From Elusimicrobia bacterium RIFOXYA2_FULL_47_53 (lineage in GTDB: Bacteria > Elusimicrobiota > Endomicrobiia > Endomicrobiales > XYA2-FULL-47-53), in the NCBI GenBank assembly GCA_001800315.1, contig MGVE01000013.1, positions 2,238 to 66,237 of the forward strand: a stretch of DNA of 64,000 bases, in the 5' to 3' direction. Both the position numbers and the translations under genes were made by a program. Positions 20,742 to 36,620 of the stretch are shown piece by piece. Numbering within the stretch: position 1 is the stretch's first letter; each line of letters starts with the position of its first letter. The notes beneath the pieces were generated by a model. That model did not search any database. It saw nothing but the letters and a program-made list of their open reading frames with translations, and was not told the DNA's origin.

Positions 20742-22241
20742 CTATCTGAGTTCGGCTCTTTTGACTTTGCCGGAAGCCGTCTTAGGCAGTGCCGGCGCCA
20801 ACACTATTGTTTTAGGAACCTTGTACGCGGCAAGGTTTTTCTTGCAGAAAATCAATATATCCTTTTCAGAGACGGACGCGCCCTCTCTCAGCACAACCAC
20901 CAGCTTAATGCTTTCTCCGAATATTTCGTCCGGAACGCCCACGGCCGCGCACTCCAGAACTTCTTTCATCATGCAAACCGCGTCTTCTATCTCCAGCGGG
21001 CTTATACGGTTTGCCCCGGACTTTATCATATCGCTTTTTCGGCTGGCTATGTAAATAAACCCATCGTCGTCCGTTCTGGCCAGATCTCCGGTATAAAGGA
21101 ATCCGTCTTTTAGCACCTTGGCGGTTTCTTCGGGCGATTTCCAGTAACCGAGCATAATATTGTCGCCGCGCGCCACTATCTCGCCGATTTCCCCGGGAAC
21201 CGCGGCTTTTCCGTTTTCGCCCACAACTGAGAGTTCCACGCCGGGAATAGCTTTTCCCACCGACCCCAGCTTGCTTTCCAAAAACCGCGGCGGCAGATAA
21301 CTGAGCCTTGCCGCGGCTTCCGTCTGGCCATACATTACAAAAAATTCAACCTTGGGAAGTATTTCCCTGAACTCTCTGATGTGCGACGGGCTCATGGCGC
21401 CGCCGGCCTGCGTCACATATCTCAGCTTCGGCAGTTTATAATTTCTGAGCGCTGACTTTCTTAAAAGTATCGCGAAATGAGACGGCACTCCGGAAAACCC
21501 GGTAACCCCCTCCCTTTCCATGGTGTCAAGCACCGTATTAGGATAGAGGAACCTGTTGTCAATCACCAGCTTTCCGCCGGCTTTAATATGAGTAGTCAAA
21601 AGCGATGTGCCGTAAGAATAAAAGAACGGGAGAACCACGGCCGCGCTGTCGTCATGGGACAGCTTCAAATATGAAACTATGGATTCCGCGTTAGAGCACA
21701 TATTCCGGTGAGAAAGCATTACACCCTTGGGCCTGCCTGTCGTGCCGGAGGTGTAAATCATAACCGCGAGGTCATTTTCGGAGACTGAACTCCGCGCGGC
21801 CTCAAGAGCCTCACCGTTTAACCCAAAGTTCTTTTCAAAATCTTCGCCCTGTGAAACAACTATCGGCTCCGGTAAACCGCCTGCTATATTTTCCCGCGCG
21901 GCATCCACAATATTTTTAAGCCGGGGCTCGGTAATTATCGCCTTAGGCGCGCAATCCGAGAGCACAAATTCAAGCTCACGGGGAACCATTTGAGTGTTCA
22001 AAGCCGCGACACAGGCGCCAGCCTTGAGCGCCGCAAAATACGATACGGCATATTCGCAGGAATTATCCAGAAAAAGAGCTACTCTGTCGCCTTTGCCCAG
22101 GCCGCGCGCGGCCAAGCCTGAGGCAAAGCAGTCGGAATACCTGTCAAGCGCGGCGTAGTCCATCCTCTGAGACAGGCAGACCACAGCCTCTTTTGACGGG
22201 TATCTGGCCGAGCTTTCTTTCAGAAAATCAAATAAACGCAT
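20742..22241 (-). CDS. AMP-forming acyl-CoA/acyl-carrier ligase (adenylate-forming enzyme)
   Basis: 499 aa. AMP-binding signature IYTSGTTGRPKGVMLSH, YGQTE, and C-terminal GKVKR. Confidence 0.85.
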   Translation of the reverse strand: MRLFDFLKESSARYPSKEAVVCLSQRMDYAALDRYSDCFASGLAARGLGKGDRVALFLDNSCEYAVSYFAALKAGACVAALNTQMVPRELEFVLSDCAPKAIITEPRLKNIVDAARENIAGGLPEPIVVSQGEDFEKNFGLNGEALEAARSSVSENDLAVMIYTSGTTGRPKGVMLSHRNMCSNAESIVSYLKLSHDDSAAVVLPFFYSYGTSLLTTHIKAGGKLVIDNRFLYPNTVLDTMEREGVTGFSGVPSHFAILLRKSALRNYKLPKLRYVTQAGGAMSPSHIREFREILPKVEFFVMYGQTEAAARLSYLPPRFLESKLGSVGKAIPGVELSVVGENGKAAVPGEIGEIVARGDNIMLGYWKSPEETAKVLKDGFLYTGDLARTDDDGFIYIASRKSDMIKSGANRISPLEIEDAVCMMKEVLECAAVGVPDEIFGESIKLVVVLREGASVSEKDILIFCKKNLAAYKVPKTIVLAPALPKTASGKVKRAELR

Positions 22242-22250
22242 ACCACTCCG

Positions 22251-24236
22251 TCAATTGACTGTCGTTATGCGGCCCTGAAATTTATCAAGCTTTTCTCGGA
22301 GCAAAGGCTCAAAACCGCTGATAAAATGCTTCTCCGTAAGAAGCGTCGTTATTATGGCCGTTACAGCCATATGATTTTTGTTGCTGACAAGCCCCGGCGC
22401 CGAGTTCCTGCATTTCGCCATCAGGCCTGCCACCGCGGAGGGATTAAATATCCCGGTGTTTTTTAAATTTGATTCAGACAACAACTCTTCCACATACTCC
22501 AGCTTTCCGGCGTTTAGAAAACTCTGGCTTTCCGGAGCCCTGTAGGCCTGTTTTTTTCTGGCGATGATATCCGCCGGCAGATAAGCCGCGGCCGCCTTTT
22601 TTAATAAATATTTTTCGCGCAGGCCCCGGATCTTGCAGCGGGGAGGCAGTGAAAGCGCGTAGCGCACAACTCTGTAATCCAGAAAAGGATATCTACCTTC
22701 AACCGAGTGAGCCATCGCGACCCGGTCGCCCTGCGAAGACAGCAGGTTGCCGGAAAGCAGGGTGAAAATTTCTATGTACTGGGCTTTCAACAGGCTGTCC
22801 CAGGACGAGAACCCGTCCGGCAGAAGGCTTTCAATTGTTTCATAGACGCTCTCGGAGGAAACGGCGCCTTTAAGATCGTCCGCGAAAAATGATTTTATGT
22901 AGGAAGTCGTATCCCATCTTGGAATATGCGAATACCAGTTTTTATCGGCGCCCGAAAGATGAGTCCTGTAAAATGCCTCAATAAACGCCGGCGCCGTTGA
23001 GGCCCCTCCGGAAATACCGGCATGAAGAATATTAAGCAGGGCGGGCCTGCATTTTGAATCCGGCTGGCGCGCCCAGAACCTGCGTATCTTCATTTCCTTA
23101 AAAAGATCGTAACCGCCCAGCATCTCGTCGGCGCCCTCGCCCGTCAGCACCACCTTGATGCCGGATTCGCGCACAAGGCGGGAAAGCATGAACATCGGCG
23201 CCGGCGCCGTCCTGACAAGGGGCTTTTCGGTATGCCAGATGACATCGGGCATGGCTTTGCCGATATCGGCGTAAGAACAGTCTATCCGGCTGTGAGCGCT
23301 GCCGATAAAATCTGAAACTGTTTTCTGATGGGCGCTTTCGTCGTAATATTTATCGCGAAAGGCAACGGAATATGTCTGTATGCCGGGATTATATTTCTGT
23401 TTTACCAGAGACGAAATAAATGATGAATCAAGACCGCCGCTTAAGTAGGAAGCCACCGGCACATCGGCCCGGAGGCGTATCCTGGCGGCATCGTCCAGAA
23501 GCGCCATCAGCTCTTCGGCGTAATCATCATCCTTCTTTTCCGGAGAGTGGCTCAGCCCGCCCGGCTCCACATCCCAGTAGCGGTTTATTTCCATCCTGCC
23601 ACCGCTGACTGTCATAAAATGTGCCGGAGGAAGCTCAAAAACATTCTTAAAAACCGTTTTAGGAGGCAGGGGCGTCCAGAAGGTAAAGAGCTGGCCGAGG
23701 CCCCCGTAATCAAGCTCGCGCTTTATTTTTCCGGAAGAAAACAACGCCTTTATTTCCGACGCGAACAGCAGAGATCCCGCTGAAACTGAGTAGTAAAGCG
23801 GCCGTATGCCCGTCCTGTCGCGCGCCATCAGGAATTTGTTCTTTTTCTTATCCCAGATAACAAACGCGAACTGGCCGTTTAGCTCTTCTAAAAGAGCCTC
23901 GCCTTTTTCTTCGTAGAGGTGGACTATAACTTCCGTGTCGGTTTTGGTGTAAAAACGGTGGCCCTGGCGGGCCAGGCGCTCGCGGAGTTCCGGATAGTTG
24001 AAAATTTCCCCGTTGTAGGTTATCCAGACGGACTTGTTTTCGTTATGAAGGGGTTGAAGTCCCCCTTCAAGATCTATTATGCTGAGCCGGCAGTGCCCGA
24101 GAGAAGCATTTTGCGAGGTGTGGATGCCCGCTTCGTCCGGGCCCCTGTGCGACAGGGACATGACCATATTCCCGGTGACTGTTGCGTCGGGGGTAAGGCC
24201 CGCCATAAGGCTTATCTGTCCGCAAATTCCGCACAT
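22251..24236 (-). CDS. Asparagine-synthase-family amidotransferase (exosortase-locus type)
   Basis: 661 aa. N-terminal MCGICGQ (Cys2 nucleophile). PP-loop SYLSGGLDSSFISSLV. Confidence 0.85.
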   Translation of the reverse strand: MCGICGQISLMAGLTPDATVTGNMVMSLSHRGPDEAGIHTSQNASLGHCRLSIIDLEGGLQPLHNENKSVWITYNGEIFNYPELRERLARQGHRFYTKTDTEVIVHLYEEKGEALLEELNGQFAFVIWDKKKNKFLMARDRTGIRPLYYSVSAGSLLFASEIKALFSSGKIKRELDYGGLGQLFTFWTPLPPKTVFKNVFELPPAHFMTVSGGRMEINRYWDVEPGGLSHSPEKKDDDYAEELMALLDDAARIRLRADVPVASYLSGGLDSSFISSLVKQKYNPGIQTYSVAFRDKYYDESAHQKTVSDFIGSAHSRIDCSYADIGKAMPDVIWHTEKPLVRTAPAPMFMLSRLVRESGIKVVLTGEGADEMLGGYDLFKEMKIRRFWARQPDSKCRPALLNILHAGISGGASTAPAFIEAFYRTHLSGADKNWYSHIPRWDTTSYIKSFFADDLKGAVSSESVYETIESLLPDGFSSWDSLLKAQYIEIFTLLSGNLLSSQGDRVAMAHSVEGRYPFLDYRVVRYALSLPPRCKIRGLREKYLLKKAAAAYLPADIIARKKQAYRAPESQSFLNAGKLEYVEELLSESNLKNTGIFNPSAVAGLMAKCRNSAPGLVSNKNHMAVTAIITTLLTEKHFISGFEPLLREKLDKFQGRITTVN

Positions 24237-29201: not shown

Positions 29202-29837
29202 TCATTCGGAATATTGAGTAAGCACGGGCAAAAGCGCCTTAATAAAGTCCTCGCTGGCGCTTCTCGCGCTTTCCTTATCGTCAAATTTTATCTCGGTATA
29301 AACATTCACCGCCATACCTCTGGAGAACCCCTTGAACATCCTGTCCGTTACAATTCGCGTCTGCTGGAGATAAAAATTGCTGTAGTAGTCGCGGCCCGCC
29401 GCGTAAAAATTATGGACAAGTATGTCGTTGCCGTGGTCCGTTGAGAAAACCATCTCATTGACTTCCACAAGCCCGCCTTTAATTTCCGGAATGGCAATTG
29501 AAACGGCGCCCCGGCCGGCAAGCTCTGAGCCGGCGCCCGTCATGCAATACTCGGGCGGATGAAAAGCCGACCTGTTGTTGACTGCCTTGACGATTATAAG
29601 CTCCACGGTTCTGCCGGCTTTGTCCCGGTATATCCTGCCGATGACGGCATCGGTACCGAGAATATCAATGACTCTTTCCTGGAACTTGATATCTTCCGCC
29701 AGCTGCCAGGAACCTATTTTAGCGGGAAGCGTCTTAATATCAACCGAGCTGACCCGCGACCTGCCGCCGTATAAAACAAACAGCGACAACCCTGCGAAAA
29801 AAATAAAAATTAATAAAAGAACAATGCTTTTTTTCAA
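29202..29837 (-). CDS. epsI: EpsI-family exosortase-associated protein
   Basis: 211 aa. N-terminal TM, then LPAKIGSWQLAEDIKF...VIGRIYRDKAGRTVELIIV...AFHPPEYCMTGAG, matching the EpsI pattern. ATGA overlap with the exosortase gene. Confidence 0.7.
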   Translation of the reverse strand: MKKSIVLLLIFIFFAGLSLFVLYGGRSRVSSVDIKTLPAKIGSWQLAEDIKFQERVIDILGTDAVIGRIYRDKAGRTVELIIVKAVNNRSAFHPPEYCMTGAGSELAGRGAVSIAIPEIKGGLVEVNEMVFSTDHGNDILVHNFYAAGRDYYSNFYLQQTRIVTDRMFKGFSRGMAVNVYTEIKFDDKESARSASEDFIKALLPVLTQYSE

Positions 29838-30691
29838 GCGCCGCGTCCCTGCTGTTTAAATATATTATAAACCATCATAAACAAACCGAACGCGATTACC
29901 CAAAGGACTATACCTGCGCCGTCGTGAAGAATGCCGCCGGTAGCGGCCTCGGTTCCGTAAATATAGGCCGCGATGATAAGAAAAACTATCCGGGCCGTAT
30001 TCGCCAGAACCGCGATCGGCAGGGAAAACGCAACTACCGCCGACTTCCTTAACATACTGCCTTTCAGGAAATACGCGAATACCACGCTTAAGGTAAACAG
30101 CGATATGAGCGAGTTTATGCCGCTGCACTCATTTTCAACCGTCAACATACCGTTGGGAAGGTAAATCACGCTCCCTTCGCGCAGTATATTCAGGTTCATC
30201 AACCCCACGACCCAGACCGCGGCCTGCGAGGCCAGTAGCTTAAGGTTAAAGGTCAGCCATATAAGCATGACCTTCGGAACCGGCACCATGAAAATGAGAA
30301 AAGACAACGGAAAAAGCAGGGCTCTGGTAATCTGCCGTCCGAACAGGTACAAAGACGCGCCTATCAGCGCGAAAATCAGCGCGAAACCGGAGAAAAACTT
30401 TATCCCCAGCACAAGCCCGACAAGCACATGCCCGGCGAGCGCCGCTATCAAAAGAGCTATCCCGAAATACGATGTTTCCTGCCGCATATTTTTGAGGCGC
30501 GGCAAACTTGAATATATAATATACGCCGAGAAAAACGGTATCAAAAAACCGTGCGAGTAATAAGAATCCGGCTCAACAAACCTGGCATACATCCACTGAA
30601 AAGTGTCAAAAAATGTCGCCGCGACCGCCGCGGGAAGCAGAAAAAAGGGTATGAATCCGCCGTAACTTTTCTTAATTACCGCCTGGGACAT
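29834..30691 (-). CDS. Exosortase (EpsH/Xrt family transpeptidase)
   Basis: 285 aa, about 8 TM. Catalytic-type motifs ENECSGINSL (Cys), LANTARIVFL (Arg), ILHDGAGIV (His). Confidence 0.8.
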   Translation of the reverse strand: MSQAVIKKSYGGFIPFFLLPAAVAATFFDTFQWMYARFVEPDSYYSHGFLIPFFSAYIIYSSLPRLKNMRQETSYFGIALLIAALAGHVLVGLVLGIKFFSGFALIFALIGASLYLFGRQITRALLFPLSFLIFMVPVPKVMLIWLTFNLKLLASQAAVWVVGLMNLNILREGSVIYLPNGMLTVENECSGINSLISLFTLSVVFAYFLKGSMLRKSAVVAFSLPIAVLANTARIVFLIIAAYIYGTEAATGGILHDGAGIVLWVIAFGLFMMVYNIFKQQGRGA

Positions 30692-32109
30692 TATTTCCTT
30701 TTTTCAAGCGCCCTTATTCTGCCGACGGCAGACAACGAGAGGCTGCCCGCGGGATATTGCTTAACGAACTCTTTGTATGTTTCAGCGGCAAGCGCTTTAT
30801 TTTTCAGGTTGTTCTCGTAAATCATGGCGATTTTAAACAATGCGAACTCGGACTTTTTGTCCGCGGGGAACTTGCTCCTGATGGCCTTCAGTGTTTCCAC
30901 GGCCGCCGCGTATTCTTCCTTCATTATGTATGTCGCGGCCAAGAGCTCAAAAGCTTCCAGCGAAACAAGGTCAGCGCTTTTATCGTCTGTAAGCGACTTG
31001 TAGTATTTAACGGCTTCCTCAAACGAACGGTTGGCGCCGGCCTTATCGTTCTTTTTAACATAGTGGCCGGCGATTATCAGAGGCACCTGCATGGCGACCG
31101 GCTTGTCCGGAAATTCGGAGCGCAGTTTATCGTATTCAGGCAGGGCTTCCTGCCACCTGCCGGCTTTATCATAACTAACAGCCACGGCAAATTGAGCCGC
31201 GGCGCGCAGGGAACCGTCTTTTGGAAAAAGCTTGTTGACTTTGTCTCTCTCGGCGGCCGCGCCGGCATAGTCGCCCTTAAGCGCGTAAATATTGCCGATA
31301 GCCAGCTGGGCCTCGCCGGCGTATTTTGACTTTCCGTATTCCTTAACCGTTCTTGAAAAAATTTCAAGAGCCCTGGCGTTATTTTTCAGAGCTTCGGAAT
31401 ATATTTTAGCCGCCTCCAGCAGGGACTGAGGAGCGGCGAAAGCCTTGGGATATTTAGCGGCAAAGGAGAGAAGATATTCGGCGGTCTGGGAAGCCCGCCC
31501 CAGTTTACTGCCGGTTATGACCATAAGCGGGTGCACGGCGGACACTATTTTGCTGTAGGGATTCGTTTCAACTATGCTTTTATAGCCAGCGAAAGCATTT
31601 TCGTAGGCTTCCTTAGACTTGTCTTTCATGCCTGAGCGGGAATACAAGTCCGCCACATACACCGGCATCTGAAGGCCGAACTCGGAAGTAGGGTAACGGT
31701 CCATGATTTTTTCGTACTCAGCCACAGCCTCTTTTATTTTCCCGGCGTTCTCCTTAAGCTGTCCGAGAGCGTACCAGGCGCGAACCGTAACATCATGCCT
31801 GTCCGGGTAGTCTACAATTACTTTTTCAAACTCACCGGCGGCCGCGGAGACTCTTCCCCTGGCTGAGTTCAATTCACCAAGCATGAGCTGAAGGTCGGCG
31901 GCATTGCTCCAGGCGGGATATTTATCAATTACACCTTTTAAATCTTTTAGGGCGCCGTCAAAATCCTTCTCGGCGGCCCGGACAGGAGACCGCAGTGTCT
32001 GGCTGTGCAGCCTGGTAACATTATAAAGCATTCTCTCGGCGTCATAATCACCGCCGCAGGATGAAAGAAATAATACGGCTGTTAATAACAGAAGATGCGT
32101 TTTCCTCAT
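30691..32109 (-). CDS. TPR-repeat lipoprotein
   Basis: 472 aa. Lipobox LSSC at residues 15-18. Tandem TPR-like A/Y/L repeats throughout. Confidence 0.75.
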   Translation of the reverse strand: MRKTHLLLLTAVLFLSSCGGDYDAERMLYNVTRLHSQTLRSPVRAAEKDFDGALKDLKGVIDKYPAWSNAADLQLMLGELNSARGRVSAAAGEFEKVIVDYPDRHDVTVRAWYALGQLKENAGKIKEAVAEYEKIMDRYPTSEFGLQMPVYVADLYSRSGMKDKSKEAYENAFAGYKSIVETNPYSKIVSAVHPLMVITGSKLGRASQTAEYLLSFAAKYPKAFAAPQSLLEAAKIYSEALKNNARALEIFSRTVKEYGKSKYAGEAQLAIGNIYALKGDYAGAAAERDKVNKLFPKDGSLRAAAQFAVAVSYDKAGRWQEALPEYDKLRSEFPDKPVAMQVPLIIAGHYVKKNDKAGANRSFEEAVKYYKSLTDDKSADLVSLEAFELLAATYIMKEEYAAAVETLKAIRSKFPADKKSEFALFKIAMIYENNLKNKALAAETYKEFVKQYPAGSLSLSAVGRIRALEKRK

Positions 32110-32942
32110 AACCTGCCCTCTATTTCCTTGTTTTTCATAAAGAATACAGTTACTGAAACCGTGTAAAAAATATCTGCTAATAAAATAAAAAATATTTTAG
32201 CCGCGACAAACAGGATGGATATCTCAGGAAACGATTTTTCCATCATGCCGCGCATGTTAACAAACAAAAACGGCAGAACAATCAGATTGGGTCCCAGAAC
32301 AACTAACAGAAGCTTTACGGGATAATTCTTAAACAGCGCGACCGCGCGTTTAAAAGACTGGGGGAGCTTCCTGTTTTCAACTATTACGGCGGGGATTCCG
32401 AAAGCGAACAGGGCCTGAATAAGAACCCCGAACAAAAACATAAGAAGCACGACGGCCTTTACGGAAGTGGTCACATACTCAAGCAGAAGGTATGAAGTCC
32501 TGGAAAAAGCGTAGATGAGCACAAATACGGCAACCCACAGGCCGAGCATACGGAAATATCTTTTAACAGATTTGCCGAACCCGAAAAACCAGCTTGGCTC
32601 GCCCGACTGGAACAGCTGGGCCGTCATGGAAATAGTTATGCCGGACATTATCAGGCCGAAAGTGAAATCTATGGCATTTTTTGAATAATTAAACAGCGTC
32701 GGGAACAGAATCAGGTTAAACGGATAGTGCAGGAAACGATCGCCCCAGAAAGCTTTTACTATAGGAGAAAACACCGTGGAAAGAGGATACCGCGGGGAAA
32801 GATAGACTACACACATGCCGGCGATATAAAACAAAGCGGTAAACAAAAATGGCGCCGCTATAACCGGCTTTTTTTTAAGCAACTCATATGATTCTTTCCA
32901 AACGGAGAGAACGCTAAGTTTATTGCCCGAATTGCCACTCAT
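32106..32942 (-). CDS. Polytopic membrane protein of unknown function
   Basis: 278 aa, about 6-7 hydrophobic helices. ATGA overlap with the TPR gene, so it belongs to the exosortase operon. Confidence 0.5.
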   Translation of the reverse strand: MSGNSGNKLSVLSVWKESYELLKKKPVIAAPFLFTALFYIAGMCVVYLSPRYPLSTVFSPIVKAFWGDRFLHYPFNLILFPTLFNYSKNAIDFTFGLIMSGITISMTAQLFQSGEPSWFFGFGKSVKRYFRMLGLWVAVFVLIYAFSRTSYLLLEYVTTSVKAVVLLMFLFGVLIQALFAFGIPAVIVENRKLPQSFKRAVALFKNYPVKLLLVVLGPNLIVLPFLFVNMRGMMEKSFPEISILFVAAKIFFILLADIFYTVSVTVFFMKNKEIEGRL

Positions 32943-33084: not shown

Positions 33085-34527
33085 CTATCTTGCGCCCTTG
33101 GAAAGAATGACCGTGCCGATAGTCTTGAAAAGTATCTGTATATCCATCAGCAGGCCCCTTTTCCTGGCGTAAAGCAGGTCATACCTCAGTTTTTTTCTGG
33201 TTCCCTCTACGGTATCGGTGTAGCCGTTCATAACCTGGGCAAGGCCCGTTATTCCGGGTTTTACATAAAAACGCGTGTTGTAATTCTCTATATCGTTGTC
33301 AAGTTGTTTTACAAAAACCGGCCTCTCGGGCCTGGGGCCTATTATGCTCATATCGCCCTTGAGCACATTAATAAGCTGGGGCAGTTCGTCAATTCTCGTC
33401 ATTCTGAGAAATTTACCAATGTGCGTTATCCTTGAATCGTTTTTCGCGGCCCAAACCGGGCCGGTGCCTTTTTCAGCGCCCATGGTCATGGTGCGCAGTT
33501 TGTATATTGTGAAAGGTTTACCGAGAACATCGTCGCTGCGCATTTCGCCCTGAGCGGGATTGCCGCGCGGAGCCCTGGATCTTCTTCTATTTTCGCCTAC
33601 CCGTTCCTGTTTATAAAACGCCGGGCCCGTGGAGTCTAATTTAACAAGTATGGCCGCGACCGCGACTATGGGAGCCGCGAGCACTATTCCGATGGAAGCA
33701 AGAAGAATATCTAAAAACTTTCTGAACTCGCTGTACCTGCTTCTCGCGAATGATGCCAGCGATCCCGCCAGGCCGAGCATTATCAGAACCATCGTGGAAG
33801 GTTCCGGAACCGGAGTGGGATTGATATCGGCCCTCAGCGTCAGGTAATCGTTGCCGCAGCTCATTGTCCAGTGCAGTTTGATATCCCTGCTGGTATGCCT
33901 GTTAAAACCAAACGCGGAGAGCGGAACGCTTGCCTCAAGCACATAGTGGCTGTTGATAGCCTCGCTGAAAGCAAAGTCAACGGGAGCATCCACTGCGCAA
34001 CCGGAGAGTATATTGTAGGGAGTGGAAGAATACAACCCGTTCTGCCACACGCAGTTCTTCTTTAGAACCGCGCTCTCCGAGCCGAGCACCTCAATGCCGT
34101 ATTCGTAAATATTGTCGCCGTCAGTATTGATGGCTATGTCGCCGGGCCATATATATGACGGAGAGAAACCCTGCGGCGAGGCGGCGCCGTTTACCGGAAG
34201 GCCCTGCACAACGGCCATGTAGAGGTTCTCGCCGTCATTATCAAAATAAAAAGCCTCGGCATCGCACATATTGCCAAAACTGTACTGGGGGCCGACAAAC
34301 CAGGCTCCGTGGCTGTAGGCCGGATTTCTGGTGTTATCCGCGTTGTCTTCAGTAATGTAATCTATGTCCGAGCCGCCCGCGGGTGTGTCGGAATCCAGGG
34401 CGAACCTGGACCCGGCCTGCAGAAGATTTACGCCCCAATCGTCCACCAGCCCATCAATAATGTAGGAATGGGCCGCGGAAGGAAGCAATAAAGCGCAGCA
34501 TAAGATTAACTTAATGTTTAAACGCAT
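33085..34527 (-). CDS. Fusion protein: secreted N-terminal domain + complete PEP-CTERM sorting signal + polyprenyl-phosphate sugar phosphotransferase (Bac_transf/EpsB-WbaP-like) domain
   Basis: Preferred start is MRLNIKLILCCALLLPSAAHS (34527). Track residues 34-250 form an extracytoplasmic domain. Residues 252-276 read VPEPSTMVLIMLGLAGSLASFARSR (PEP motif, TM helix, basic cluster; DNA 33736-33810). Residues 281-492 read FLDILLASIGIVLAAPIVAVAAILVKLDSTGPAFYKQERVG...YKLRTM...DELPQLINVLKGDMSIIGPRPERP. One uninterrupted frame. Confidence 0.75.
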   Translation of the reverse strand: MRLNIKLILCCALLLPSAAHSYIIDGLVDDWGVNLLQAGSRFALDSDTPAGGSDIDYITEDNADNTRNPAYSHGAWFVGPQYSFGNMCDAEAFYFDNDGENLYMAVVQGLPVNGAASPQGFSPSYIWPGDIAINTDGDNIYEYGIEVLGSESAVLKKNCVWQNGLYSSTPYNILSGCAVDAPVDFAFSEAINSHYVLEASVPLSAFGFNRHTSRDIKLHWTMSCGNDYLTLRADINPTPVPEPSTMVLIMLGLAGSLASFARSRYSEFRKFLDILLASIGIVLAAPIVAVAAILVKLDSTGPAFYKQERVGENRRRSRAPRGNPAQGEMRSDDVLGKPFTIYKLRTMTMGAEKGTGPVWAAKNDSRITHIGKFLRMTRIDELPQLINVLKGDMSIIGPRPERPVFVKQLDNDIENYNTRFYVKPGITGLAQVMNGYTDTVEGTRKKLRYDLLYARKRGLLMDIQILFKTIGTVILSKGAR

Positions 34528-34580
34528 ACAATTCTCCATAAAAATTTGCTCAGGCCTGAACAAACCTTACGATTCATTTT

Positions 34581-35195
34581 TTACAACAGCAGCTTCTTCC
34601 TTGAAGCCACAAGGCCTAATAAACCTGTTCCAAGCAACATTAATGTCGCCGGTTCAGGAACAGCTGTTGCGGTAGTCACCTTAAATGTAACCCCACTATT
34701 GCGATAATGGCAATCAGGATCAACACCAAACCCAAAATCATCATTAGTGGCAATGTAATTCTGAAGGTCATCAATCAATCCGAGAGAACTGAATGAATAG
34801 ACCAAGTCAAAATTACGCGCTACTCCGCCAAGAGGGTCACTCCATGTGCCGACAAGGACACCTTGTCCGGCAAACATATCATTAGTGTCTCCGTCCCAAA
34901 CCCCATCTGTCCCGCTAAGCGTACCTAACACTGCTGAGTCAAGCAAATGAGTGTAGAGCATGTCCCCATCTTCAACAGCCCAGTCATAAATATTCTTATA
35001 AGTAAGAACCGCTTCCTCAATGTACTCAGTGGGAGCAAGGTTAAGCTTAAGACCCCATGTGTAGAAATAAGAATGATTCAAATCCCCTAAATCATACGGG
35101 GTTGGCTGATAAGTATAAATAGCCGACTGAGATACTCCTGTGAGCACGGCCATGACAGCCGAGATTAACAACACTTTTACTAACGCTTTTTTCAT
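34581..35195 (-). CDS. PEP-CTERM sorting-domain protein
   Basis: 204 aa with a signal peptide. C-terminus AVPEPATLMLLGTGLLGLVASRKKLLL. Confidence 0.85.
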   Translation of the reverse strand: MKKALVKVLLISAVMAVLTGVSQSAIYTYQPTPYDLGDLNHSYFYTWGLKLNLAPTEYIEEAVLTYKNIYDWAVEDGDMLYTHLLDSAVLGTLSGTDGVWDGDTNDMFAGQGVLVGTWSDPLGGVARNFDLVYSFSSLGLIDDLQNYIATNDDFGFGVDPDCHYRNSGVTFKVTTATAVPEPATLMLLGTGLLGLVASRKKLLL

Positions 35196-35348: not shown

Positions 35349-36020
35349 TTATTTCTTTATTTTTAGTGCCGCGATGCCGAACAATCCGGTTCCAAGAAGG
35401 AACAGGGTTGCCGGTTCAGGGATAGGCCTGGGAAAACCGCCGGCGCTGCTGGTCTTGGGCGAGAAATCGTCTTTCCAGTCAATCATTCCATTTTTGTTTG
35501 TATCGGCAAGAGCGAAGAAATGGTCTCCCTCGGTCATGATGCCGGTGTATGAAATAGGAGCCGTGAACATATAATAGGTTTTATTGTCCAAGTCGTTTGT
35601 GGTCTGCCAGAGGGACTGGGTTTTAGGAAGCAGAGTATTGTAATAAATGCAAGAGGGATTGTTGTATCCATCTATCTGATGATCCACATTCTGGGTAAGC
35701 GCAAGCTGCTGGTTGTTAAAGTAGAGAGGAAAATTGTCGCCGCCCGTGTTTGAAATAAAGTATATGTCGTTCAGCCATGGCACATAAGAAGTGAATACGG
35801 TAAGGTTTGAGCCGGAAGGCCCGATAACAAAACCATGGTAATCGGGGTTCGCGGCGGGAACTATGGTATCGGCGAAATACTGTATATAAGTCCAGTTGAC
35901 GGCATCCGCGTCAGCATACGCGTAAGTACCCGCGGCTACACCCAGCGAAGGAGTAGCGTTTACCGGAACCGTCAAAAATAATGCCGCTGCCGCAACCAAA
36001 AACAAAAAGATTCTCTTCAT
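35349..36020 (-). CDS. PEP-CTERM sorting-domain protein
   Basis: Preferred start is MKRIFLFLVAAAALFL (36020), with AAGGGGAAG upstream. C-terminus PIPEPATLFLLGTGLFGIAALKIKK. Confidence 0.85.
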   Translation of the reverse strand: MKRIFLFLVAAAALFLTVPVNATPSLGVAAGTYAYADADAVNWTYIQYFADTIVPAANPDYHGFVIGPSGSNLTVFTSYVPWLNDIYFISNTGGDNFPLYFNNQQLALTQNVDHQIDGYNNPSCIYYNTLLPKTQSLWQTTNDLDNKTYYMFTAPISYTGIMTEGDHFFALADTNKNGMIDWKDDFSPKTSSAGGFPRPIPEPATLFLLGTGLFGIAALKIKK

Positions 36021-36293
36021 TAAACTTCCCCTTTTAGACACATATTCCACAAGATGACAACCCATGATTTACAGCGGACACAGCAAAAACAAAAAACGAA
36101 CAGACTCCCCCGAAAGGAAAGGGCCGCTTAAAGCTGCGGCCAAATGTTACTTAATTAATCCAAATTTGTCAACGCCCTGCCAGACTGCGTACAATTTGAT
36201 AAATAATATTACAAAACAAGAAACCAGGTTGTCAACAAACCGGGTTTCTTGTTTATGCCACTGATAAGAATTTTTTATCGTCTGAGGTGTTTT

Positions 36294-36620
36294 TTATCTG
36301 AAATAGTACCTTACGGGTTTGCTATCGCTTTCAGCGGAATAGCTGACGCGGCTGGGGCGCGAACCATTGTCCGTTTTTATCACAGCGTAGACTCTCTTGA
36401 GCGAAATATTGAACAGTTCGGCTAATTCCTGAGCGGTTTTGCCCTGTTTGCTGAACTTTTTAATCGCGGCGTTTCTATGGACAAGAAATTGTTTATCCCT
36501 GAAACCATAATTGCCCCTTTTGGGTATCCAGATTCTCTTTCCCCCAAACTCGGCAATCAGTTTTTTATAGTTTTTCTCATCAAGCACCTCGCGCAAATGC
36601 TTCACGGGGATTACCTCCAT
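36294..36620 (-). CDS. Mor-like / HTH DNA-binding transcriptional regulator
   Basis: 108 aa. LIAEFGGKRIWIPK followed by a helix-turn-helix GKTAQELAELFNISLKRVYAVIK, the layout I recall for the Mu Mor activator family. Confidence 0.5.
   Translation of the reverse strand: MEVIPVKHLREVLDEKNYKKLIAEFGGKRIWIPKRGNYGFRDKQFLVHRNAAIKKFSKQGKTAQELAELFNISLKRVYAVIKTDNGSRPSRVSYSAESDSKPVRYYFR

Follow-up and report, generated by a model that had tools for sequence, protein, structure and literature searches.

An internal PEP-CTERM sorting signal joined to a predicted phosphoglycosyl transferase in exosortase loci of Elusimicrobiota and Omnitrophota

We have analyzed a stretch of 64,000 nt from Elusimicrobia bacterium RIFOXYA2_FULL_47_53 (contig MGVE01000013.1, assembly GCA_001800315.1; hereafter, the window, to which all positions refer), where an open reading frame (ORF) at 33085–34527 of the minus strand encodes a protein of 480 amino acids (aa), followed by a stop codon. 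From the N-terminus, this protein is composed of a signal peptide, an ectodomain, an internal PEP-CTERM sorting signal, and a phosphoglycosyl transferase (PGT). A preliminary description, made from the DNA sequence alone, had claimed these four parts in one unbroken frame, and all of them are found in this order. The ATG start is preceded by a GGAG Shine-Dalgarno sequence 6 nt upstream (34534–37); a second possible start, TTG at 34563, is less likely. The predicted Sec-type signal peptide (aa 1–21; 34465–34527, minus strand), MRLNIKLILCCALLLPSAAHS followed by Tyr, has, as read by eye from the sequence, a basic n-region, a hydrophobic core, and an A-H-S cleavage site, and in homologs the pattern A-x-A, with Y(V/I)(I/V)DG directly after the cleavage point, is kept at this site. 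It is followed by the periplasmic ectodomain of 218 residues (aa 22–239; 33811–34464, minus strand). As the full-length AlphaFold2 (AF2) model is poor, with the predicted local distance difference test (pLDDT) equal to 61.9, it was used for secondary structure alone.

The segment at 33736–33810 of the minus strand (aa 240–264) translates to exactly VPEPSTMVLIMLGLAGSLASFARSR and has the tripartite layout of a PEP-CTERM signal, VPEPST-MVLIMLGLAGSLASFA-RSR, that is, Pro-Glu-Pro, a hydrophobic transmembrane (TM) helix, and a basic cluster. It had been proposed to be a genuine signal, with a check by profile hidden Markov models suggested. The 480-aa protein scores above both curated cut-offs, with 26.2 bits for Pfam PEP-CTERM (PF07589; gathering cut-off 20.7, E-value 7.8e-6, residues 239–259) and 19.5 bits for TIGR02595 (cut-off 16). 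The adjacent upstream PEP-CTERM proteins (34581–35195 and 35349–36065) score 35.0 and 27.4 bits, so that the internal signal is as good as that of a bona fide neighbor. An exosortase is encoded in the same genome (29834–30691), with EpsI alongside. The C-terminal location typical of these signals is not observed here: 216 residues, constituting the whole PGT, come after the fused signal, compared to a median tail of 3 residues in true PEP-CTERM proteins, 87% of which have fewer than ten further residues (Haft et al., 2006; PMC1569441).

The remaining part of the protein (aa 265–480; 33088–33735, minus strand) is, by homology, a complete small monotopic PGT, predicted to transfer sugar-1-phosphate to polyprenyl phosphate. 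Its match to Bac_transf (PF02397; 201.4 bits, cut-off 27) is split in two stretches because an Arg-rich insertion interrupts it, and the PglC and WbaP structures match the domain with E-values of about 1e-25. The alignment to PglC (PDB 8e37) opens at PglC residue 8, at EFRKFLDIL directly after the basic cluster; hence, a whole PglC-like enzyme starts straight after the sorting signal, with no linker. The re-entrant membrane helix (aa 273–298; 33634–33711, minus strand) includes the invariant Asp as well as the (S/A)-Pro break, and AF2 shows a helix spanning residues 265–298. D273, P286, the D380-E381 dyad (IDELPQ), and G397-P398-R399-P400 (GPRPERP) are invariant in 18 homologs, and Pro at +46 is present in 97 out of 97 family members. 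Cut-offs of two broader models are missed: TIGR03013 (EpsB_2) matches well only at about profile positions 300–443 (243.3 bits, cut-off 393.35), and TIGR03025 (exopolysaccharide (EPS) polyprenyl glycosylphosphotransferase) yields 271.4 bits (cut-off 295.55). A tblastn search for Bac_transf enzymes detected none in the window besides this PGT, WecA-type enzymes being outside this search.

The Arg-rich insertion, reported earlier as an unusual feature, is real. It comprises 26 aa (about 312–337; 33517–33594, minus strand) between the first two strands of the fold, and is missing from PglC and from 67 out of 97 family members, while the other 30 have it. The insertion occurs in all long forms of the family (see below) and in some short ones, always starting with NRRR or NKR; its pLDDT in the AF2 model is below 50, and it is probably disordered.

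Directly readable from the sequence is the topology of a type I membrane protein, with the PEP motif at the periplasmic face, a single TM crossing, and the PGT on the cytoplasmic face. The topology envisaged in the preliminary description, with the helix of the signal anchoring a cytoplasmic enzyme, is coherent, as the basic cluster of the signal abuts the segment aligning to PglC.

The same 480-aa protein, identical or nearly identical, is encoded on at least eight contigs from independent assemblies of Elusimicrobia metagenome-assembled genomes (MAGs). The respective 90% identity cluster holds 480-aa proteins, annotated as hypothetical, of several separately assembled MAGs named “Elusimicrobia bacterium RIFOXY...”, on contigs of up to 164 kb. 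The names of these MAGs suggest Rifle groundwater as their source. Moreover, 18 full-length homologs with 43–62% identity span the junction without a stop or frameshift. On this comparative evidence, the initial concern about a collapsed stop or frameshift at the junction is removed.

For 116 of the 120 best homologs, the invariant Asp at the start of the PGT domain provided an anchor for alignment. P-E-P is present in identical register, 32–30 residues before this Asp (–32 to –30), in 96 out of 116 homologs, and PEA, PEV, or PEL are found in four more; the spacing from PEP to the PGT is free of indels throughout the family. Conservation reaches at least 92% at T/S5, L8, G12, and G15 and in an Arg-Lys/Arg pair at +22/23, and positions N-terminal to the motif carry nearly no information. 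Cargo signals encoded at these loci likewise conserve L8, G12, and G15. The Pfam PEP-CTERM model is passed by all 20 family members tested, and the PGT domains of PEP-bearing proteins are only about 45–50% identical. Judging from these alignments, the PEP motif of the fused proteins is under selection.

The PEP-TM-PGT layout is common to roughly 100 related proteins of Elusimicrobiota and Omnitrophota, both of them uncultured phyla. Approximately 70 out of the 96 members are short forms of 264–330 aa, having a signal peptide and only 20–60 unconserved residues before PEP; those with a given organism name come from Candidatus Omnitrophota/Omnitrophica, two single-cell genomes among them. The long forms, like the protein from the window, number about 25 and feature at least three unrelated types of ectodomains. 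As most members have only this short non-conserved region before PEP, the conserved unit is PEP-TM-basic cluster-PGT and not the cargo domain, and the sequences suggest that the short forms represent the ancestral and dominant state. The idea of a singular substrate fused to an enzyme stands as regards the architecture of the window’s protein and fails as regards its singularity, since the protein is a long-form member of a family. Twelve loci, 11 of them from Omnitrophota, come from a genome scan that rested on a single peptide, FARKRFxEF, and so the taxonomic breadth of the family is under-sampled.

A 53-column junction profile searched against 1.84 billion representatives yielded 726 matches, a number unusable as the family size because the list is dominated by apparent run-on tandem PEP-CTERM genes, with true fusions or fragments making up about 40 of the top 150. 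In this list, about 90 predicted proteins (among P0133–P0273), 270–2500 aa long, have 2–10 PEP-CTERM signals with a new signal peptide after each one. They look like tandem PEP-CTERM genes read as one ORF, e.g., due to a wrong stop-codon table, and are less likely to be real polyproteins.

The ectodomain of the window’s protein is modeled by AF2 as a beta-sandwich (pLDDT 78.9, predicted template modeling score 0.75). Foldseek matches are weak (4jpq, 2ivf_C, and 7b04_C; best E-value 7e-4, TM-scores 0.30–0.37), hence the label CBM9/DOMON-like is tentative; weak Pfam CBM9_1 matches are seen in two out of 20 family members. A search with the ectodomain only retrieved twelve stand-alone proteins (P0121–P0132) of 249–285 aa with 36–56% identity, all of them ending in a PEP-TM-basic signal and 11 annotated with Pfam PEP-CTERM. 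In another Elusimicrobiota locus (L006, 10001–12878), the ectodomain fused to the PGT is 41.5% identical to the window’s upstream neighbor (34581–35195), and the window’s ectodomain type is found in the next, stand-alone PEP-CTERM gene, that is, the two ectodomains are reciprocally swapped relative to 33085–35195 of the window. This swap points to recombination at the signal-coding segment, and fits an origin of the long forms by recombination of a neighboring PEP-CTERM gene with a PGT gene at the segment coding for the signal that both share. The gene-fusion origin from neighboring PEP-CTERM genes, considered plausible in the preliminary description, is thus supported by the stand-alone relatives of the ectodomain and by the swaps between loci.

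The operon that includes the gene lies on the minus strand and has the composition usual for EPS loci with exosortases: two PEP-CTERM genes are followed by the PEP-TM-PGT gene and the genes for a 278-aa membrane protein, a TPR lipoprotein, an exosortase, and EpsI, and then by EPS genes. The two upstream genes encode ordinary PEP-CTERM proteins with C-terminal signals, as had been claimed, namely, a 204-aa protein directly upstream (34581–35195, minus strand), whose type of ectodomain recurs in fusion with the PGT at L006, and a 238-aa protein (35349–36065, minus strand), both identified by profile search. Just upstream of them, a 108-aa protein (36294–36620, minus strand) has a borderline match to the Mor transcription activator (24.6 bits, cut-off 24.9) and may be a local operon regulator.

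The exosortase gene (29834–30691, minus strand) starts 2.4 kb downstream of the fusion gene on the same strand, as initially described. Its product has the sequences ENECSG, NTARI, and LHDGAG and passes the generic exosortase models, with 203 bits for PF09721, 158.8 bits for TIGR02602 (cut-off 105.55), and 63.3 bits for TIGR04178 (cut-off 23). The best subtype match is the XrtA model (TIGR03109), with 170.6 bits and the cut-off of 208 missed; no curated subtype cut-off is reached, and the protein is described here as XrtA-like, unclassified. It is possible that the exosortases of these cassettes in Elusimicrobiota and Omnitrophota represent a subtype not yet classified. The EpsI-family (DUF3485) exosortase partner and the TPR lipoprotein of the cassette are encoded at 29202–29837 and 30691–32109, respectively (both minus strand).

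The multi-pass membrane protein of 278 aa (32106–32942, minus strand) has no match in Pfam or NCBIfam, and one of its homologs has a weak GPDPase_memb match. Homologs of this protein adjoin the PGTs of this clade in most loci that extend far enough, and by tblastn the protein is also kept at L019 and L020, two loci from which both the PEP motif of the PGT and the exosortase are gone. We regard it as a probable conserved partner of the PGT, so far uncharacterized.

After EpsI, the operon encodes a Wza-like exporter and a Wzc-like kinase, then an asparagine synthase, an AMP-ligase, and glycosyltransferases; further EPS genes are those for a Wzy-like polymerase, a flippase, and a pyruvyl transferase. 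The asparagine-synthase-type amidotransferase and the AMP-dependent ligase (20742–24236, minus strand) stand out within this operon. Similar enzymes accompany XrtA systems; in this operon, their substrate could be the polymer or an acceptor for sorted proteins.

To assess the association with exosortases, we counted distinct loci with usable flanks, 16 with a PE(P/A/V/L) motif and four without it. An exosortase is encoded within 10 kb in 13 of the motif-bearing loci and in none of the motif-less ones (one-sided Fisher test, hand-computed, p about 0.007, the sample being small), and none of the four motif-less relatives has PEP-CTERM genes near the PGT. Two of the four retain a TM helix in the same register. 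Nine Omnitrophota loci have the order exosortase, EpsI, PEP-TM-PGT, PEP-CTERM gene(s), the homolog of the 278-aa protein, TPR protein; the window’s own order is found in three loci, the window included.

With PEP itself left aside, the identity of the fused signal to cargo signals amounts to 32% both within its own locus and in comparison with other loci; among the cargo signals, identity is 49–57%. Gene conversion with the neighboring cargo genes was considered as the cause of PEP retention and rejected, the same-locus identity (0.32) being equal to that with other loci (0.32).

Based on these data, we propose the following scheme. The Sec signal peptide would export the N-terminal part of the protein, placing the PEP motif at the periplasmic face. 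There, the PEP-TM helix would be recognized by the co-encoded exosortase in the same way as cargo signals are, and would draw to the exosortase the enzyme that produces the first lipid-linked sugar. In the long forms, the exosortase probably also cuts at PEP, so that the ectodomain would enter the normal PEP-CTERM route, with the TM helix and the PGT staying in the membrane, and in the short Omnitrophota forms the helix would be mainly an address tag or a pseudo-substrate. In short, an exosortase-binding PEP-TM helix may couple the priming PGT to the sorting enzyme, with additional release of the ectodomain by cleavage in the long forms, a reading for which we see the chances as even. A more specific version, in which the priming PGT is an exosortase client, and polysaccharide initiation is licensed or given its place when the exosortase binds or cleaves the PEP-TM helix, so that the cargo and its possible glycan acceptor are made at one membrane site, is more tentative, and we offer it as a possibility that falls short of an even chance. 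The general notion of PEP-CTERM cleavage and possible transpeptidation by exosortases itself derives mainly from archaeosortase work and floc genetics.

Several observations weigh against the coupling. The fused TM part is more divergent from the cargo signals (0.32) than the latter are among themselves (0.49–0.57). Some relatives hold the TM helix in register having lost PEP, which shows that the anchor alone is viable. There are members with PEA, PEV, or PEL, and the three of them whose context was examined sit inside exosortase loci; three motif-bearing loci have no exosortase within the DNA retrieved. Long-tailed PEP-CTERM regions could lack function, as Haft et al. (2006; PMC1569441) suggested. 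Further, the two enzymes work on opposite faces of the membrane, the PGT on the cytoplasmic and the exosortase on the periplasmic one, and, were the cleavage sortase-like, the TM-PGT part would be the leaving group, and therefore the co-localization would be only transient.

Many of these points would be explained if the helix were a relic: the small PGT would have gained this additional N-terminal TM helix when it once fused with a PEP-CTERM gene, and would retain it solely to anchor the protein and set its topology, with the exosortase neither binding nor cutting it. The PEP-less relatives with the helix in the same register, the departure of the fused TM segment from the cargo consensus, the tolerance of PEA, PEV, and PEL inside exosortase loci, and the above remark about long-tailed signals (PMC1569441) all agree with such an origin, as does the presence of N-terminal TM segments in large PGTs such as WbaP. 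We consider this main rival less likely than the coupling, since a mere anchor would not readily account for the retention of P-E-P in 96 out of 116 homologs despite the low identity of the PGTs and the unconserved residues upstream, nor for the preservation of the hallmark L8, G12, and G15. Motif loss also coincides with the absence of both exosortase and PEP-CTERM genes in four cases out of four, and the PGT gene is tightly adjacent to those of the exosortase and EpsI.

Alternatively, as emphasized in the preliminary description, the fusion might exist for producing the outer domain and setting it free, the PGT being a mere leftover. The ectodomain of the window’s protein is indeed also known as a stand-alone PEP-CTERM cargo, and a different cargo type is fused in L006. 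This explanation is improbable for the family, in which about 70 out of 96 members have almost nothing to deliver, and the same cargo can come from a separate gene; as most members lack a real cargo, cargo release fits the window’s protein and not the general function of the family. Finally, the merging of a PEP-CTERM gene and a small PGT gene by a lost stop or an assembly frameshift, favored solely by the prior expectation that PEP-CTERM signals are C-terminal, has a negligible chance and is effectively refuted by the recurrence of the ORF on independent contigs, by the 18 full-length homologs crossing the junction, and by the indel-free register of 33 residues kept in 96 homologs from ENA, JGI, NCBI, and Logan, single-cell genomes included.

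Among known systems, the protein resembles the members of the PEP-CTERM/exosortase system (Haft et al., 2006, PMC1569441; TIGR02595/PF07589) in its tripartite signal scoring above the cut-offs and its predicted N-terminal signal peptide, and the locus resembles this system in combining the exosortase, EpsI, the TPR protein, and EPS genes in one operon, with ordinary PEP-CTERM neighbors. The differences are the internal position of the signal, with enzyme residues in place of the usual short tail, the TM segment, which makes a sub-class of its own, and the exosortase, which is below the XrtA cut-off.

The Bac_transf priming enzymes of exosortase loci (EpsB_2 type), such as the product of Aquincola epsB2, required for floc formation (PMC9850573), share the genetic tie to these loci. 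However, they are long and WbaP-like, and are tied to exosortases by neighborhood or phylogenetic profile only, whereas here the signal lies within the polypeptide; moreover, only their C-terminal catalytic part is matched here (243 vs. 393 and 271 vs. 296 bits).

The small monotopic PGTs of the PglC type (PDB 8e37, 8g1n) have the same re-entrant helix, (S/A)-Pro break, DE dyad, PRP motif, and length of the catalytic unit. Unlike the window’s protein, PglC begins in the cytoplasm with no preceding TM segment, while here the signal peptide, the ectodomain, and the PEP-CTERM TM helix precede the catalytic unit, and the 26-aa Arg-rich loop is added. The large monotopic PGTs WbaP and WcaJ (PDB 8t53 and WbaP entries) likewise have additional membrane-spanning segment(s) before the catalytic domain; however, these form a four-helix bundle accompanied by a cytoplasmic domain, with no signal peptide, periplasmic domain, or sorting motif.

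The full-text literature searched yielded no paper on the fusion of a PEP-CTERM signal with a PGT; a 2024 proteome-wide survey of monotopic PGTs does not mention PEP-CTERM or exosortases, and NCBIfam has no model for the PEP-TM-PGT family. The two-domain annotation is already silently present in databases as precomputed Pfam matches for both domains, and the NCBI names of the members vary among “hypothetical protein”, “sugar transferase”, and, for one member, “PEP-CTERM sorting domain-containing protein”. The family shows that a “C-terminal” sorting signal can stay under selection in an internal position, as far as its conservation tells, which affects the annotation of such signals.

From 2006 on, co-occurrence alone has connected the PEP-CTERM/exosortase system with exopolysaccharide loci. 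A sorting signal covalently joined to the enzyme that commits a sugar to the lipid carrier constitutes evidence of the Rosetta-stone type that both processes meet at the membrane, and makes the long-standing question about sorting and EPS directly testable with one protein, one motif, and one protease. If the PGT is indeed a client of the exosortase, this would be a direct molecular coupling of PEP-CTERM sorting and EPS synthesis, so far inferred from gene neighborhood only.

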